From the NCBI GenBank assembly GCA_043758655.1, contig JAYVNC010000197.1:1-34688 (forward strand): DNA of 34,688 nt, in the 5' to 3' direction. The position numbers were made by a program, and so were the translations under genes. Position 1 is the first letter of the stretch; every line of letters starts with the position of its first letter. Below are positions 23,271 through 29,187 of the stretch, piece after piece. A model generated the notes under the pieces. The model saw only the letters and a program-made list of their open reading frames with translations, was not told the DNA's origin and did not search any database. Source of the stretch: Novosphingobium sp. Lineage in GTDB: Bacteria > Pseudomonadota > Alphaproteobacteria > Sphingomonadales > Sphingomonadaceae.

Positions 23271-23495
23271 CTACTGGAACAGAACGGTTGCGCCGTCTGT
23301 CGATCCAGTCGCGATAAATCTCAGATCATCACGACTAAAGTGGCTTGTGTTTGAAACAATCAGCTGCGCGCCTCCGCTCAAACCAGTTGCTATGAAGCGC
23401 AAGTCGTCCCGCCCGAAATCAGTGCCATCAACATGAACGCTTCCACCTCCTGTCGCAATAAATCGAAGATCTTCGCGTGAACGGCCCTTAATCAT
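23271..23495 (-). CDS. 74-aa hypothetical protein with three R[E/D]DLRFIATG repeats
   Basis: Peptide repeats with synonymous divergence; start overlaps the yebC stop and stop abuts the ruvC start. Confidence 0.75.
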
Positions 23496-24326: not shown

Positions 24327-25631
24327 TCAGCCGGCGTTTGGCGAGCACACACTTTGCCCGACTTGCGCAAGATGAACCACAATGTCGACAAGTGCGGGGA
24401 AGTCTTCATGGATGGCACAGGTAGGAATCACTGGATGCCCTTGGAGACGTTCACCATTCGCCCGGTAAATCTGCCCGGTTGTCAAACGAAGGGCGGTTCC
24501 GCGATCAAATCGGATCATCGAGTCAATGTAGCCAATCCCGGAAGACGTAGCGCCAACGACCATGCCTGTATGATTGTCCTGTATGGCTGCTGCCACAATT
24601 TCAGCACCTGACGCCGTATGCTTACTCGTTAACAAGACAATGGACTTCCCATTAACAATTGTATCGGATTTAGCAGAGTAGCGTATGGACTCGGCTTCAT
24701 TTCGGGAAGAAATTTTGGCAATATTTCCTTTTTTTAGCATTGCATCTGCCACAGCAATGGCTTCATCAAGAAGGCCGCCTACATTATCACGCAAATCAAC
24801 GACCAGTAGCTTTGCGTCACTTCCGTAGGTTCGAACCAATCGAGAAAATTCGACCGCCGAGCCCTTTGTAAATTCGTGCAGCGAAATTATGAACACATCA
24901 CCACGACGCTCAAAGTCGATAGCCTCGTTCACAGTGAGGATTACCCTACGCATAACTTTCACCGTACGCTGTTGCCCATTTTGCCCAACTATTTGCAATA
25001 TAACCGTAGTTCCGAATTTACCGCGCATAGAGTCCGCGACTTTTTCCTGTGACAGTTGGCGCGTGGCTAAACCGTCAACCGCTACAATAACATCTCCAAC
25101 GGCCAGACCAGCTTCGAGCGCAGGTCCTTCGCGCACCAAAGAAACAATTCGTGCGCCCAAAGGATCGTCGGAAAAGCTCAAACCAATACCAACACGGCTA
25201 ATCCCATTGCTAAGTCGCTTGACCTCTTCGCGACTAAAAAATCGGTTCCGTCCCTCCAATGGAGTTAGCGCAGCACTGACCAATGCATCGGTCGCGCTGT
25301 TTGCCACGTCAGCTGTGGCATCGTCGAGGTGCATACAGAGGTACGCTGCGTCCATCGCGGTGGCCAGATTTCGCCCGCGTGTATTGCCAAGCATGCAGGT
25401 ATCAAATTCACTTGCGTTGATCCCTGCCCGACGGCGTGCCTCAGAAACCACGGCATCAGCCATCGCCGCCTCATTTGGAATTTGAAAATAGTTATCGCGA
25501 ACTAAATTGCTAAAAACACCGAGAAATTGTGTATTCGCCGCATCGTTTCCCGCAGAGACCGGCAACGGCCACATTAAGCAAGTTGCAGCCGCCGCCGCCA
25601 TGGTTACGTGATGGTAAACCCTCATATTCAC
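24327..25631 (-). CDS. S41A (CtpA-like) C-terminal processing peptidase homolog with PDZ domain
   Basis: Signal peptide, GIGL PDZ motif, VDLRDNVGGLL, TASGAEIVAAAIQD; AT-richer than its flanks. Confidence 0.82.
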   Translation of the reverse strand: MNMRVYHHVTMAAAAATCLMWPLPVSAGNDAANTQFLGVFSNLVRDNYFQIPNEAAMADAVVSEARRRAGINASEFDTCMLGNTRGRNLATAMDAAYLCMHLDDATADVANSATDALVSAALTPLEGRNRFFSREEVKRLSNGISRVGIGLSFSDDPLGARIVSLVREGPALEAGLAVGDVIVAVDGLATRQLSQEKVADSMRGKFGTTVILQIVGQNGQQRTVKVMRRVILTVNEAIDFERRGDVFIISLHEFTKGSAVEFSRLVRTYGSDAKLLVVDLRDNVGGLLDEAIAVADAMLKKGNIAKISSRNEAESIRYSAKSDTIVNGKSIVLLTSKHTASGAEIVAAAIQDNHTGMVVGATSSGIGYIDSMIRFDRGTALRLTTGQIYRANGERLQGHPVIPTCAIHEDFPALVDIVVHLAQVGQSVCSPNAG

Positions 25632-25882: not shown

Positions 25883-25964
25883 GGGGTCAGTCTTTCAGAT
25901 AAGGGAGAATCGGCTGGTGGGGTCGATAGCGAGGGCGGGAGATTCGGGGAAGGGCCCGTTCTCG

Positions 25965-26125
25965 CTCTCTCCCCAGCGGGGAGAGATACGAAGGCTTGAG
26001 AGCGCAGCGATCTAGCCGCAGTTGAGAGGGGGCTCTGCCTTCGCAAGCGCCGAGCTCCCCTCTCCAACTTCGCCTTAGGCGGCAAGCCGCCAAGGCTGCG
26101 TATCCTCTCCCCTGACAGGGGAGAG
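25965..26125. repeat. CIR/REP-like composite palindrome, interrupted at its right end by the IS (remainder at 28848-28857)
   Basis: Terminal hairpins TCTCTCCCC-AGC-GGGGAGAGA and CCTCTCCCC-TGACA-GGGGAGAG(G); the two halves are imperfect inverted copies. Confidence 0.8.
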
Positions 26126-26134
26126 GGGACTGCA

Positions 26135-27019
26135 TCACTTTGAAATTTCCACCGTCCGTTTTTTGTAGGGGCCGCGCAGCTTAGGCGTTTGGCTTGCATC
26201 AATCCGACCGAGGATTGTTTCAAATCCCATGAACGTATCGGCGATGCCAGCGGCCATAGCGGGCGACATGCGCAGCTTGGAGTGAGTGCGGATAAAGTTG
26301 TAGAACATCGTATAGAGCGCGACCATGTGCGCATGATTTGCCACCTTCTTGCTGTGGCCGTTTGTCAGGCGGGTAAAGCGGCGCATGTGCATCCGCATCG
26401 TCTTGTTGTGCGCTTCGACATAAGACGTGCTGACATGCGCAATGTCGGGATTTCCTTCAACCCGAACCTTCTTGATGCCGGTGCATTCCGCTGGGCTGTA
26501 GCGACCACCCTTGTCGATTGTCGGGCCATACATCTTGATGATTTGAGCATAGTCCACATCAGCCCCGAATGCGCCTTCTATAGCTTCCAGATAGGCGCGG
26601 TGGCCATCAGTTGACAGCTGGACGCGGTTTGCGAGGCGCGAGCGGAGATCGTCCATAAGTTCGATTGCAGTCTCTCCCGAACGATCCCCAACAAGGTAGC
26701 TGACAATCAGTTTTGAATCGGCGTCAATACCGGTCCAAGTCCAAATGTCGCCAGCGCCTTCCGGTGCGGCTTTGGCGCTGGTAACGGTCTTTTGCTTGCA
26801 ATAGTTGAAGGCCCAAATTTCATCGCACTGTATGCGGCTCGCCTTTACGCCCTGCACCATTTCATCGTGCATTTCGACACAGACTGTCCCGGCGTCGATC
26901 AGCAGTTTCGCAACCGTATTGAAGCTAACGTCGGCGATCCGGGCAACGGCGCGCATGGACATGCCCTCGCACAGCAGATTGAGGATTTGAACACGGGCTT
27001 TGATGGCGAGCTTTCTCAT
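26135..27019 (-). CDS. IS1-family-like DDE transposase (single ORF, N-terminal HTH)
   Basis: HTH CEGMSMRAVARIADVSFNTVAK; D in IQCDEIW, D in LSTDGHRAY, E in TSYVEAHN; RRFTRLTNGHSKK; stop codon lies within the TIR. Confidence 0.88.
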   Translation of the reverse strand: MRKLAIKARVQILNLLCEGMSMRAVARIADVSFNTVAKLLIDAGTVCVEMHDEMVQGVKASRIQCDEIWAFNYCKQKTVTSAKAAPEGAGDIWTWTGIDADSKLIVSYLVGDRSGETAIELMDDLRSRLANRVQLSTDGHRAYLEAIEGAFGADVDYAQIIKMYGPTIDKGGRYSPAECTGIKKVRVEGNPDIAHVSTSYVEAHNKTMRMHMRRFTRLTNGHSKKVANHAHMVALYTMFYNFIRTHSKLRMSPAMAAGIADTFMGFETILGRIDASQTPKLRGPYKKRTVEISK

Positions 27020-27037
27020 GCCCATTTCTATATGGAC

Positions 27038-27063
27038 CTTTATACATGACGTCAAGCATAAAG
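27038..27063. promoter_or_regulatory. Imperfect 26-bp palindrome overlapping a putative transposase promoter
   Basis: CTTTATACATGACGTCAAGCATAAAG centred on TGACGTCA; minus strand reads TTGACG-N17-TATAGA just upstream of the ATG. Confidence 0.6.
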
Positions 27064-27088
27064 CGACTTTACGAAACTAGGGGCGGCC

Positions 27089-27451
27089 TTACGCCACGTC
27101 CTGCTGATTGAACCGAAGCCGGTTCGGAACAATAGCTAGCAAGTCGTCCTCTTCTGAGATGCGAAGCATGCGCATGTCGCGAACCACCTCCCAGAACCAA
27201 GCGTACTTGTCGTTAAGATCGAGCACGGCGGCGGCGCATGTCATCGCCGAAGTGTGCTCATTCCCATAGAAGACGCTGCCTTGCTGGCGGCGAAAGCCGT
27301 GGCCTTCCAGAACGCGGGCGATTTTCGCCCAGGCACCGTGCCTCTCAGCAGCTTCTTTGTTTAGATCGTAGGCTATCGCGTACACGCGGCCCGTTCCTTT
27401 CAGAGGTCGATGTCCCATCCCTCTTGCGCAGGACATCGGTGTTACAGACAT
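27089..27451 (-). CDS. vapD: VapD/Cas2-like endoribonuclease
   Basis: VYAIAYDL...GFRRQQGSVF...WFWEVVRDMRMLRI.EEDDL; ATG 27451 has a GAGGAG RBS; alternative GTG start at 27385. Confidence 0.8.
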   Translation of the reverse strand: MSVTPMSCARGMGHRPLKGTGRVYAIAYDLNKEAAERHGAWAKIARVLEGHGFRRQQGSVFYGNEHTSAMTCAAAVLDLNDKYAWFWEVVRDMRMLRISEEDDLLAIVPNRLRFNQQDVA

Positions 27452-27489
27452 GGATCGGCTCCTCGGAAAGCACATTATCGCACTTTCCG

Positions 27490-27720
27490 ACTAGACGAAT
27501 CTAGTTCGATTTGCTAGGCAGAATGCATCGAGGGTGATGCCCCGATGCAAACCGCTGAGTTAAGCCTTCAACAAGGCGGATTGCCACATAGGGTTACTCC
27601 TAGCTCGTGCTCCCGGATGCAGGGATAGGTTGGACTAAGGTTTCGACGGTGGTGCAAACACCGTAGTCACCGGCTTCTGGGCCGCTCCAAAAGAGCGGCC
27701 CATTCTCGTGGATGGGAGAA
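27490..27720. ncRNA. Candidate structured non-coding RNA inside the IS (unassigned)
   Basis: Series of hairpins: 27490-27505, 27524-27549, 27564-27577, 27646-27664, 27678-27702. Confidence 0.35.
27678..27707 (+). terminator. GC-rich 10-bp hairpin, possible terminator
   Basis: TGGGCCGCTC-CAAAA-GAGCGGCCCA followed by TTCTC (weak U-tract on + strand only). Confidence 0.45.
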
Positions 27721-27728
27721 AAGCACCA

Positions 27729-28196
27729 TCAAAATTCAATGTCGTCATCAAGCTCGGCGGAAAACCCGCCCGCCGGTTGCGCAGGCCGAATGCCGAACGG
27801 ATCATCATCCTCGGCCTCCACAGGCGATGCCTTTTCAACCTTCCGCCAATAGCGGCCATCGCCCACCTCTATTCGATCCTTGTTGCGGGCTAGGACGGTT
27901 CGAACGTTGTCTTGTGAGATCGACGTCACCCCGCTCGCCACTAAGGCCTCGTGGATCTCTTTTGGCGTTTTGCCGCCCCACTCGGAGTCCGAAAGAACCT
28001 TAAGGATGTGCGCAAGTGATTGCCCACGGGGCACGGCTGTTTCCACCTCCGGATTAAGCCCAAGGCGCGACAGTGTATCCCAGGTGATCTCAAGATTGCG
28101 AAGCTCGGCTTCGGCTGTCTCAAGCTGCCCACGAAGCTTTGTGACACGCTTGGTGGTCTCCGCCTTCTTCGCCTCAATAAGTTGCATTGTGTCCAT
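27729..28196 (-). CDS. Hypothetical coiled-coil + wHTH-like protein with SSB-like acidic C-terminal tail
   Basis: Heptad-rich N-terminus; ILKVL...TPKEIHEAL...VRTVLAR...GRYW; C-terminus GGFSAELDDDIEF; start could be 28214. Confidence 0.7.
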   Translation of the reverse strand: MDTMQLIEAKKAETTKRVTKLRGQLETAEAELRNLEITWDTLSRLGLNPEVETAVPRGQSLAHILKVLSDSEWGGKTPKEIHEALVASGVTSISQDNVRTVLARNKDRIEVGDGRYWRKVEKASPVEAEDDDPFGIRPAQPAGGFSAELDDDIEF

Positions 28197-28294
28197 GGCT
28201 TCGCCGCATAGCACGACTGTGACAACGTGTCGAATCCCGAGCCGTCACAAACCGGGCTGTCACGAATGTCCGTGACAACTGCGGAAAACGTCAC

Positions 28295-28322
28295 ACTTAT
28301 CCACAGGTCGCTGTGGATAAGT
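28295..28322. promoter_or_regulatory. Perfect 12-bp inverted repeat made of two consensus DnaA boxes
   Basis: ACTTATCCACAG-GTCG-CTGTGGATAAGT; TTATCCACA at 28297-28305 and TGTGGATAA at 28312-28320. Confidence 0.6.
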
Positions 28323-28342
28323 CTTGCCACTCCTATCGCACA

Positions 28343-28573
28343 TCATTTCCCCCACCGTTTTTTCGCCGCTGCCCGTGCGATCTCCGCTCGCCTCTCAGGC
28401 GACATCGACGCGGCGCGCGCAGCGCCACCCTTACGCCCCATCGACTGTGCAGCCTTGTCCTTACCGTCATCGGGCGCTTCATCGTCAGCTTCGCCTGTCA
28501 GAACGCGCATCACATGGACGGCGTTGCCGATCACGTCTGCGGGGCGTTTGCCACCTGCGGGAGACTTAGGCAT
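28343..28573 (-). CDS. Small basic KGG-motif protein (IS-associated)
   Basis: KRPADVIGNAVHVMRVLTGE...MGRKGGAARAASMSPERRAEIARAAAKKRW; start overlaps the upstream ORF stop. Confidence 0.8.
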   Translation of the reverse strand: MPKSPAGGKRPADVIGNAVHVMRVLTGEADDEAPDDGKDKAAQSMGRKGGAARAASMSPERRAEIARAAAKKRWGK

Positions 28574-28754
28574 CGACCTGTCTCGCGATCTTGTTGAATT
28601 CAGCCTGGCAATGGTCCAAGTTGAACCTCAAGCTCTCGACCGAATGTGGTTCAAGTCTCGCGATAGACGCTGCTCGGTAGAAATCGTTAGCTTCCTTGAG
28701 TTTGTCGAGCGCATCTGACCATTCGTTATATTGCGGGTGATCTTGAACTGGCAT
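28566..28754 (-). CDS. 62-aa hypothetical helical protein, first cargo gene
   Basis: GGAG RBS before the ATG; overlaps the next gene by 8 nt. Confidence 0.55.
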   Translation of the reverse strand: MPVQDHPQYNEWSDALDKLKEANDFYRAASIARLEPHSVESLRFNLDHCQAEFNKIARQVDA

Positions 28755-28763
28755 GTTGGCTCC

Positions 28764-28779
28764 TGCTTAGCGTTAAGCA
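28764..28779. promoter_or_regulatory. Palindromic operator-like site upstream of the cargo genes
   Basis: TGCTTA-GCGT-TAAGCA; resembles the core of 27038-27063. Confidence 0.55.
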
Positions 28780-28857
28780 TTCATAGCAGACGGTTGGCAA
28801 CAATGCCAGATTAGTCAACCGCGTCTATTTCAAAGTGATGCAGTCCCGGGGAGAGGG

Positions 28858-29187
28858 CTAGGTTGCATTCAACTTCATACTCTCCGCCATCCGCGCCTGT
28901 TGCTCAGCCGTCGCCTCAGATTGAAACCGCGCTTTCCATTCGACCGCCCCCATGCCGTGGATCACTTCGCGCGCGCCCGCCTTGTCCAAAGGCGCGCCGG
29001 CTTCGACGATCCAGTCACCCAGGCAGTTGCGGCAGAACCCTGCAAGTCCCATCAGTTCGATGTTCTGCGCATCACTGCGGTGGCGCAGGTGGCGCACGAG
29101 GCGGCGGAATGCGGCGGCGGCTATGGCATCATCGAGCGCATCCAGCGCGTCGCCGGGGTCCGCATTCGTATTTTCTGAGCAGCTCAT
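28858..29187 (-). CDS. DUF1244 domain protein
   Basis: AAAFRRLVRHLRHRSDAQNIELMGLAGFCRNCL; this is the real 3' part of the 402-aa ORF in the track. Confidence 0.9.
   Translation of the reverse strand: MSCSENTNADPGDALDALDDAIAAAAFRRLVRHLRHRSDAQNIELMGLAGFCRNCLGDWIVEAGAPLDKAGAREVIHGMGAVEWKARFQSEATAEQQARMAESMKLNAT

Follow-up and report, generated by a model that had tools for sequence, protein, structure and literature searches.

What holds a VapD nuclease in check when it travels without a fixed protein partner? The question is raised by a contig of Novosphingobium sp. (JAYVNC010000197.1 in assembly GCA_043758655.1), of which a stretch of 34,688 nucleotides, referred to here as the window, was analysed. 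Within it lies a transposable element of 2,722 bp (26126–28847) whose minus strand carries five open reading frames (ORFs): a 62-residue orphan, the KGG protein, a coiled-coil and winged-helix protein, VapD and an IS1-like transposase. We lean, if only slightly, towards control of the hok/mok/sok kind, in which a short upstream ORF (uORF), needed to unlock an orphan VapD, would be silenced by an antisense RNA, the cassette occupying a swappable slot of the transposon. Coordinates are collected in Table 1, and L numbers denote individual loci.

VapD and the leader that travels with it

The VapD of the element, 120 residues long with its start corrected to 27451, has a Cas2/ferredoxin-like fold with a conserved Asp and Ser, and its nuclease activity is putative. 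Its top matches in the Protein Data Bank are VapD structures (E 4e-13), and it scores 31.8 against the NCBIfam VapD model, under the cutoff of 100; among 39 VapDs the Asp is kept in all, and the Ser position holds Ser in 33 and Thr in 6. Searching with this protein yields 13 further loci that form one clade, 43–95% identical to it and with an N-terminal extension of ~22 residues. Nine of them adjoin an IS1595 transposase, three of these with terminal inverted repeats (TIRs) and an 8-bp target site duplication (TSD), and the others lie, one each, with a serine recombinase and EcoRII, with a resolvase, on a viral contig (truncated) and at a contig end.

The gene upstream of vapD switches family while VapD stays alike and a leader of ~170 nt persists; at L078 and L080, VapDs 92% identical follow upstream genes that have no mutual blastp match. 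The leader is found at all 14 loci of the clade, and a model built from 11 of them recovers the three found later (E 8e-49 to 7e-12); it is missing from all 21 distant VapD loci tested, a set from which four near-duplicate viral loci were left out, and from the IS1-like relatives of the element. With leader model R2, a wider search of 150 genomes gave no loci beyond those already known, and 68 other loci gave no match; plasmids gave nothing, phages two weak 34-nt matches, and a class-wide pattern search of 400 genomes a single match, at the start of an ordinary long ORF. Neither the window nor six homologous loci hold an Rfam match at the gathering score (sub-threshold matches only).

That VapD has no fixed protein partner counts for RNA control. 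An ordinary type II toxin–antitoxin (TA) pair, with the coiled-coil and winged-helix protein neutralising VapD and autorepressing the operon, is very improbable in our estimate: a co-oriented gene does stand upstream in 13 of the 14 loci, with no more than a remnant left at L086, the predicted fold is a winged helix and, in the element copy, five GTGAC/GTCAC repeats (28215–28296), candidate self-operators, precede the gene, but partners from at least two families, and two unrelated proteins, replace one another with no divergence of VapD, and VapDs 95% identical have partners ~30% identical. The protein of the element, 155 residues from its corrected start at 28196, matches no family in Pfam, NCBIfam, PADLOC or PHROG, and a fold search with its model gives nothing at E ≤ 0.001, the weak matches being mostly winged-helix proteins. 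Known VapD antitoxins are SH3-type or VapD-like (PMC11980593), and by fold class neither neighbour of VapD here, the coiled-coil winged-helix gene or the transposase, belongs to these. A small IS1595 accessory gene comes after vapD in 10 of 14 loci; as a VapD antitoxin it was rejected, because a search with it gives 8 independent loci in 200 genomes, six of them without VapD, and it is absent from the element.

The first-pass annotation, made from the letters alone, had pointed to a hairpin-rich region. That region is real (27383–27728; fold z = −4.27 for the minus strand, −2.84 for the plus strand), and what had gone unnoticed in it are a uORF, a set of competing helices and an antisense unit. 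The uORF family reads MWQ[STA]A[LF]..., spans 7–14 codons, shows synonymous changes, uses three stop codons and has a run resembling a Shine–Dalgarno (SD) site 5–9 nt 5′ of it. Its stop lies 107–111 nt ahead of vapD in 13 of 14 loci, and at L124 and L125 another ORF, of 23 codons, stands in its place with the same stop position.

Three pairings in the leader are mutually exclusive, namely the base of hairpin P1, helix H2 and hairpin H3. H2 is paired in 95% of cells, with double changes in five of its nine pairs, and H3 in 79%, with four doubly changed pairs; the covariation score of the predicted ON structure (P1 + H2) is reached by none of 500 shuffles. Nine G–U cells against one C–A point to pairing on the vapD-sense RNA. 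When the 10 nt past the uORF stop are blocked in folding calculations, 9 of 14 leaders show a greater easing of vapD SD-site opening than any of the 12 shuffles, the mean gain being 2.85 kcal/mol (shuffle means −0.47 to 0.26) and that of the element copy 2.45 kcal/mol.

Under hok/mok/sok-like control, an mRNA starting 5′ of the winged-helix gene would run through the uORF and vapD, with the ribosome site of vapD hidden by H3. A ribosome at the uORF stop would open the base of P1, and the freed strand would build H2 and remove H3. An antisense RNA of ~175 nt would pair with the uORF start and so prevent the ribosome-driven opening of P1; after loss of the element or shut-off of transcription this RNA would decay, VapD would be made and the cell would arrest. 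Arrest driven by VapD would stabilise the element or abort phage infection.

The predicted antisense unit and competing readings

On the opposite strand, TAGAC(G/T), 15 nt and GCTA recur ungapped in 16 of 16 leaders, a set that includes those of L136 and L138, which hold uORFs of their own (MWHIARRLP and a longer variant), a hairpin, and promoter- and terminator-like signals on the antisense strand. The motif resembles the Caulobacter RpoD consensus TTGaCgS/GCtANAWC (PMC8144410). Between 158 and 231 nt downstream of it lies a strict stem whose tail is U-richer on the antisense side in all 16 leaders (5.1 U of 9, against 0.75 on the other side). The fixed-spacing promoter motif and the oriented terminator-like stem together predict an antisense RNA over the uORF. 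Type I TA systems have a cis-antisense RNA that overlaps the translation start region; the promoter- and terminator-like signals of the 16 leaders make such an RNA a candidate here. A generic scan for sigma-70 promoters and terminators, in which a final T in the −10 and a run of five T are obligatory, found nothing above shuffles, and the genome count of the motif is uninformative, because the assembly holds 2 against 10 for a reversed control. Readings of the uORF motif as a sigma-54 or sigma-32 promoter were dropped because the spacing did not suit the consensus, and a type III TA system or CRISPR-like repeats were set aside, neither a tandem nor a direct repeat array being found.

The uORF could also be a stall sensor like toiL of E. 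coli, with antibiotics, starvation or phage-caused tRNA loss stalling a ribosome near its end and turning vapD on, and with the antisense RNA in a minor or tuning role. A model of this kind is published for toiL–topAI (PMC12121999), TTA (1.4% of host Leu codons) occurs in 15 of 16 uORFs and rare AGA or ATA in three, and stalling is equally consistent with the H2/H3 switch and the constant place of the stop; what it leaves unexplained are the opposite-strand promoter and oriented terminator of all 16 leaders, TTA is missing from the uORF of the element copy, and elsewhere TTA may be kept by RNA pairing. We regard this as rather unlikely, and it is compatible with the antisense reading, not exclusive of it. 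A broader proposal, which we hold tentatively and at somewhat less than an even chance, is that of a type I TA system on a Cas2-fold VapD: a portable uORF-plus-antisense switch would pass between transposons (IS1-like and IS1595), recombinase-linked islands and a phage, and the rare codons of its uORF may let it also sense translation stress when a phage infects the cell.

It is decidedly unlikely, in our view, that the motif is an overlapping two-way promoter, with vapD on a short-leader mRNA of its own and the uORF/antisense pair controlling the winged-helix mRNA or the small IS1595 gene. Such a promoter would suit L136 and L138, where TATAAC or TATAGG comes after the motif, 17 nt past TAGCAA or TAGCGA and 7 nt before an ATG lacking an SD site, and it would suit the position of the small gene 3′ of vapD; yet the covarying H2 requires one RNA with both arms, and neither short transcript would have both. 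The rightward −10 is poor, reading TAGTCG, in 10 of 14 vapD leaders, and the uORF stop is tied to the start of vapD by distance.

Several points weigh against hok/mok/sok-like control of vapD. The controls flatter H2 and H3, because these structures were named from the same sequences, and counts over 14 loci overstate independence because the loci are kin (L080/L082 at 97%, L124/L125 at 86%). The folding switch fails in 5 of 14 leaders (L079, L120, L123, L124 and L125); in the element copy, opening the SD site still costs 9.5 kcal/mol with the ribosome placed, and scoring a wider SD site gives no opening (9.7 to 10.7). In the antisense −10, the last T is missing in all 14 vapD leaders and agreement with the consensus is confined to GCTA, and in L136 and L138 the motif can also be read as a rightward promoter. 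Two of the six VapD-less loci of the small IS1595 gene, L136 and L138, have their leader directly 5′ of that gene, and H3 is missing there; the control unit is therefore portable and not VapD-specific. Transcripts of either leader strand are predicted, repression by RNA is suggested by folding, and toxicity of the VapD clade is putative. Finally, in the VapD census, where antitoxins are proteins only, ~50% of VapDs are orphan or stand-alone (PMC11980593).

Table 1 Features of the element and its ends (window coordinates)
Feature	Position	Strand	Remarks
TSD, copy 1	26118–26125		8-bp GGGGAGAG; inside a palindrome resembling repetitive extragenic palindromic (REP) sequences
TIR, transposase end	26126–26146		pairs with 28827–28847; fits family TIR pattern
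IS1-like DDE transposase, 294 aa	26135–27019	−	N-terminal helix-turn-helix (HTH), no Cys zinc finger; D66/D138/E202
Predicted transposase promoter	27028–27056	−	TTGACG-17-TATAGA; similar motif in 16 of 32 relatives
VapD/Cas2-fold nuclease (putative), 120 aa	27089–27451	−	putative catalytic Asp and Ser present
Hairpin H3	27463–27490	−	overlaps start of vapD SD site; predicted OFF state
Competing helix H2	27485–27523	−	27514–27523 with 27485–27494; covarying; predicted ON state
Antisense promoter-like motif	27492–27520	+	TAGACG-17 nt-TAGGCA, GC before it
Hairpin P1 and segment closing its base	27525–27557	−	segment lies right after uORF stop
Predicted antisense RNA, ~175–185 nt	27527–27711	+	spans uORF and its ribosome site; ends in hairpin 27678–27702 and pyrimidine tail
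uORF MWQSALLKA	27560–27589	−	SD site AGGAG at 27597–27601
Coiled-coil and winged-helix protein, 155 aa	27729–28196	−	acidic tail resembling that of the single-stranded DNA-binding protein (SSB)
Inverted pair of perfect DnaA 9-mers	28297–28320		28297–28305 and 28312–28320; this copy only
KGG protein, 76 aa	28343–28573	−	core accessory gene; no family model; 'histone H1' in one GenBank relative
Orphan ORF, 62 aa	28566–28754	−	variable first slot; sole homologue is itself
TIR, cargo end	28827–28847		pairs with 26126–26146
TSD, copy 2	28848–28855		8-bp GGGGAGAG

The IS1-like element and its family

The element is real: its ends, its target duplication and its bridged junctions were all found. The TIRs are 21 nt long and 100% complementary, the TSD is intact, and the transposase stop codon falls within a TIR, all as first described. 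A single copy is present in the 2.34-Mb, 85%-complete assembly, and both junctions are spanned, with zero differences and at a depth similar to that of the flanks, by contigs from two DNA runs of one study, possibly the source samples of the assembly; in these contigs neither a same-strain empty site nor a circle junction was seen. The insertion target is half of a REP-like palindrome that recurs in the genome, and the adjoining 25960–26125 belongs to a ~165-nt palindromic REP-like repeat family with many copies in the genome and the genus. An empty site had been expected between gapR and a neighbouring gene: in 10 of 13 relative loci the two genes adjoin and the element is lacking (the DUF1244 label of the second comes from the first-pass annotation only, and the query for it is partly in frame), and no exact empty REP site turned up in the four relatives read, of which two have a different repeat there and two have none.

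The IS1 family has TIRs of ~20–25 bp and target duplications of 8–9 bp, with which the TIRs and duplication of the element agree. Its classical subgroup has an N-terminal zinc finger, an insA/insB frameshift and a length of ~0.8 kb; here the transposase is a single ORF with an N-terminal HTH in place of the zinc finger, whose absence had been correctly noted, and the element measures 2.7 kb. The corrected transposase start is 27019, D66, D138 and E202 are invariant in 11 of 11 transposases, the Pfam model DDE_Tnp_IS1 matches at 26.8 bits (cutoff 24.1), and the best NCBIfam match, the IS1 model NF033558, is yet under its cutoff (64.2 versus 100); three of four full-length plasmid relatives are annotated as IS1 family transposases. 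ISMhu11 is an IS1 subgroup without the zinc finger and with a C-terminal extension, a name not found in the searchable literature. The transposase mRNA is likely to be leaderless.

A transposase scan of GTDB contigs gives 48 loci, 32 of them with both TIRs and 2,298–4,187 bp in size. Among the 31 relatives with readable flanks, 27 have a perfect 8-bp TSD, three have one mismatch and one has none. All 32 complete relatives carry the transposase and the KGG gene, and all have passenger genes between the TIRs, the mark of a transporter insertion sequence (IS); the proposal of a recently inserted transporter IS with a fixed core and a variable slot thus holds. Cargo ORFs of the complete relatives were profiled against Pfam (92) and PADLOC (67). 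An RmrA-like XRE–ImmA protein occurs in 12 of 32 elements, in five of them with an RmrT-like neighbour (RosmerTA-like), and the remaining cargo includes HigBA-like, RelE-like, Fic, GNAT, P63C, Bro-N, ParA or ClpP-like genes; the family cargo is rich in TA and defence genes.

Of 48 transposase-side flanks, 17 have a TTG that starts exactly 8 nt beyond the TSD (any other position, at most 4), as do 6 of 33 cargo-side flanks; often the TTG extends to TTGAC, and TA follows 17 nt on in 7 of the 17 (flanks L016–L063 and L066; window 28863–28865). Insertions of the family appear to fall directly 5′ of sigma-70-like promoters. P63C cargo proteins start with a KGG-like segment (L028:5989–6978, L032:5893–6885, L066:4497–5546), so the core motif exists also as a fused domain. 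Cargo with a coiled coil and an HTH-like part recurs (L037:6458–6991, L042:6188–6649, L056:6015–6716, L058:526–1149, L136:843–1274), with a HARE-HTH match in L037 only; a profile of the window's winged-helix family matches none of four such proteins from IS1 elements. A parallel IS1595 transporter group has 25-bp TIRs and 8-bp TSDs (L078:3056–5381, L082:2980–5315, L121:3529–5893; L134–L141) and a 63–65-aa accessory gene, convergent on the transposase, as the counterpart of KGG. At L135, near 1490, a two-codon uORF (MW-stop) lies over the SD site of the small IS1595 gene, ~15 nt before the gene, and may be a shortened version of this leader type. Elsewhere in the window, the nearby housekeeping run is broken by an S41 peptidase gene of lower GC and by a 74-aa ORF in which DDLRFIATG motifs recur (23271–23495 and 24327–25631).

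The first-pass annotation had bound VapD, the hairpins, an SSB mimic and DnaA boxes into one new system, a replication-linked machine that would steer or protect transposition. Both motifs are real in the element copy: the winged-helix protein's tail GGFSAELDDDIEF resembles the C-terminus GGFADDLDDDIPF of a host ORF, which we take to be SSB, these two being the only such ends in a six-frame scan of the assembly, and the DnaA pair accounts for two of its 10 perfect 9-mers. SSB-like tails are found on three other VapD partners (L077, L078 and L079), and tested VapDs induce SOS (PMC11980593). Against this, none of the 32 relatives and none of the 11 VapD-cassette stretches checked has the DnaA pair, the tail is retained in 2 of 29 close homologues, and VapD, the winged-helix protein and the 62-aa ORF are on no other of the 48 transposase loci. 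With DnaA boxes private to this copy, a sporadic tail and no relative with the same cargo, such a system is unsupported and exceedingly improbable; the boxes as a family feature and the tail as an essential one were rejected on the same counts.

Known systems and the meaning of the locus

The claim that the type of transposon is new falls, because transporter ISs, passenger-carrying elements, are already published for IS1 and IS1595 (PMC8496243); the definition stands in the TnCentral preprint (bioRxiv 2021.05.26.445724), where only IS1595 and IS66 are named. The IS1 transporter ISs, from 2009 work as cited in PMC8496243, share the IS1-type DDE transposase, TIRs starting GG, the 8-bp duplication and passengers 5′ of the transposase. 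Differences of the present family that were not found in the searchable literature are its fixed KGG gene, defence-rich cargo and target bias near a −35-like TTG. An IS1-like family with KGG and cargo was likewise not found in the searchable literature on IS cargo. The vehicle is thus known in kind, and the putatively RNA-controlled VapD cassette is uncatalogued.

Hok is a membrane peptide, whereas the toxin proposed here is a Cas2-fold nuclease. In hok/mok/sok of plasmid R1, likewise a mobile-element locus, an antisense RNA blocks a leader ORF required for toxin translation (PMC4393325); here the leader ORF ends ~108 nt ahead of the toxin and would act by refolding, and the RNA would be ~175 nt long. 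CopA/tap/repA and Inc/repY/repZ also combine an opposite-strand leader antisense RNA, a leader peptide and coupled downstream translation (PMC8053102), with Rep as output in place of a nuclease or an IS accessory protein. In toiL–topAI–yjhQ a short uORF and a hairpin hide the toxin ribosome site; the pairing partner of that site is toiL itself, with a protein antitoxin encoded next, whereas here there would be a three-helix relay and an antisense unit (PMC12121999). VapXD, VapYD, VapWD and stand-alone VapD share the fold and putative catalytic residues (PMC11980593), and the present clade differs in having no VapX/Y/W-like neighbour, the N-terminal extension and a conserved RNA leader. The main text of that paper makes no mention of transposases, insertion sequences or Alphaproteobacteria, and its supplements may list such loci; VapD with an antisense RNA as a type I TA system was not found in the literature searched, as judged by titles and abstract openings.

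Only protein antidotes are known to date for this toxin family; one made of RNA would be new and, if the reading holds, part of the VapDs with no known antitoxin would be explained. To the matter of how cells tolerate antitoxin-less VapDs, the locus offers a concrete candidate answer in the case of this clade: an RNA would serve as antidote by way of a leader ORF. The locus further defines a family of leader and antisense RNA, alphaproteobacterial and so far uncatalogued, and small IS1-like and IS1595 elements emerge as ferries of TA and anti-phage cassettes such as RosmerTA-like pairs.

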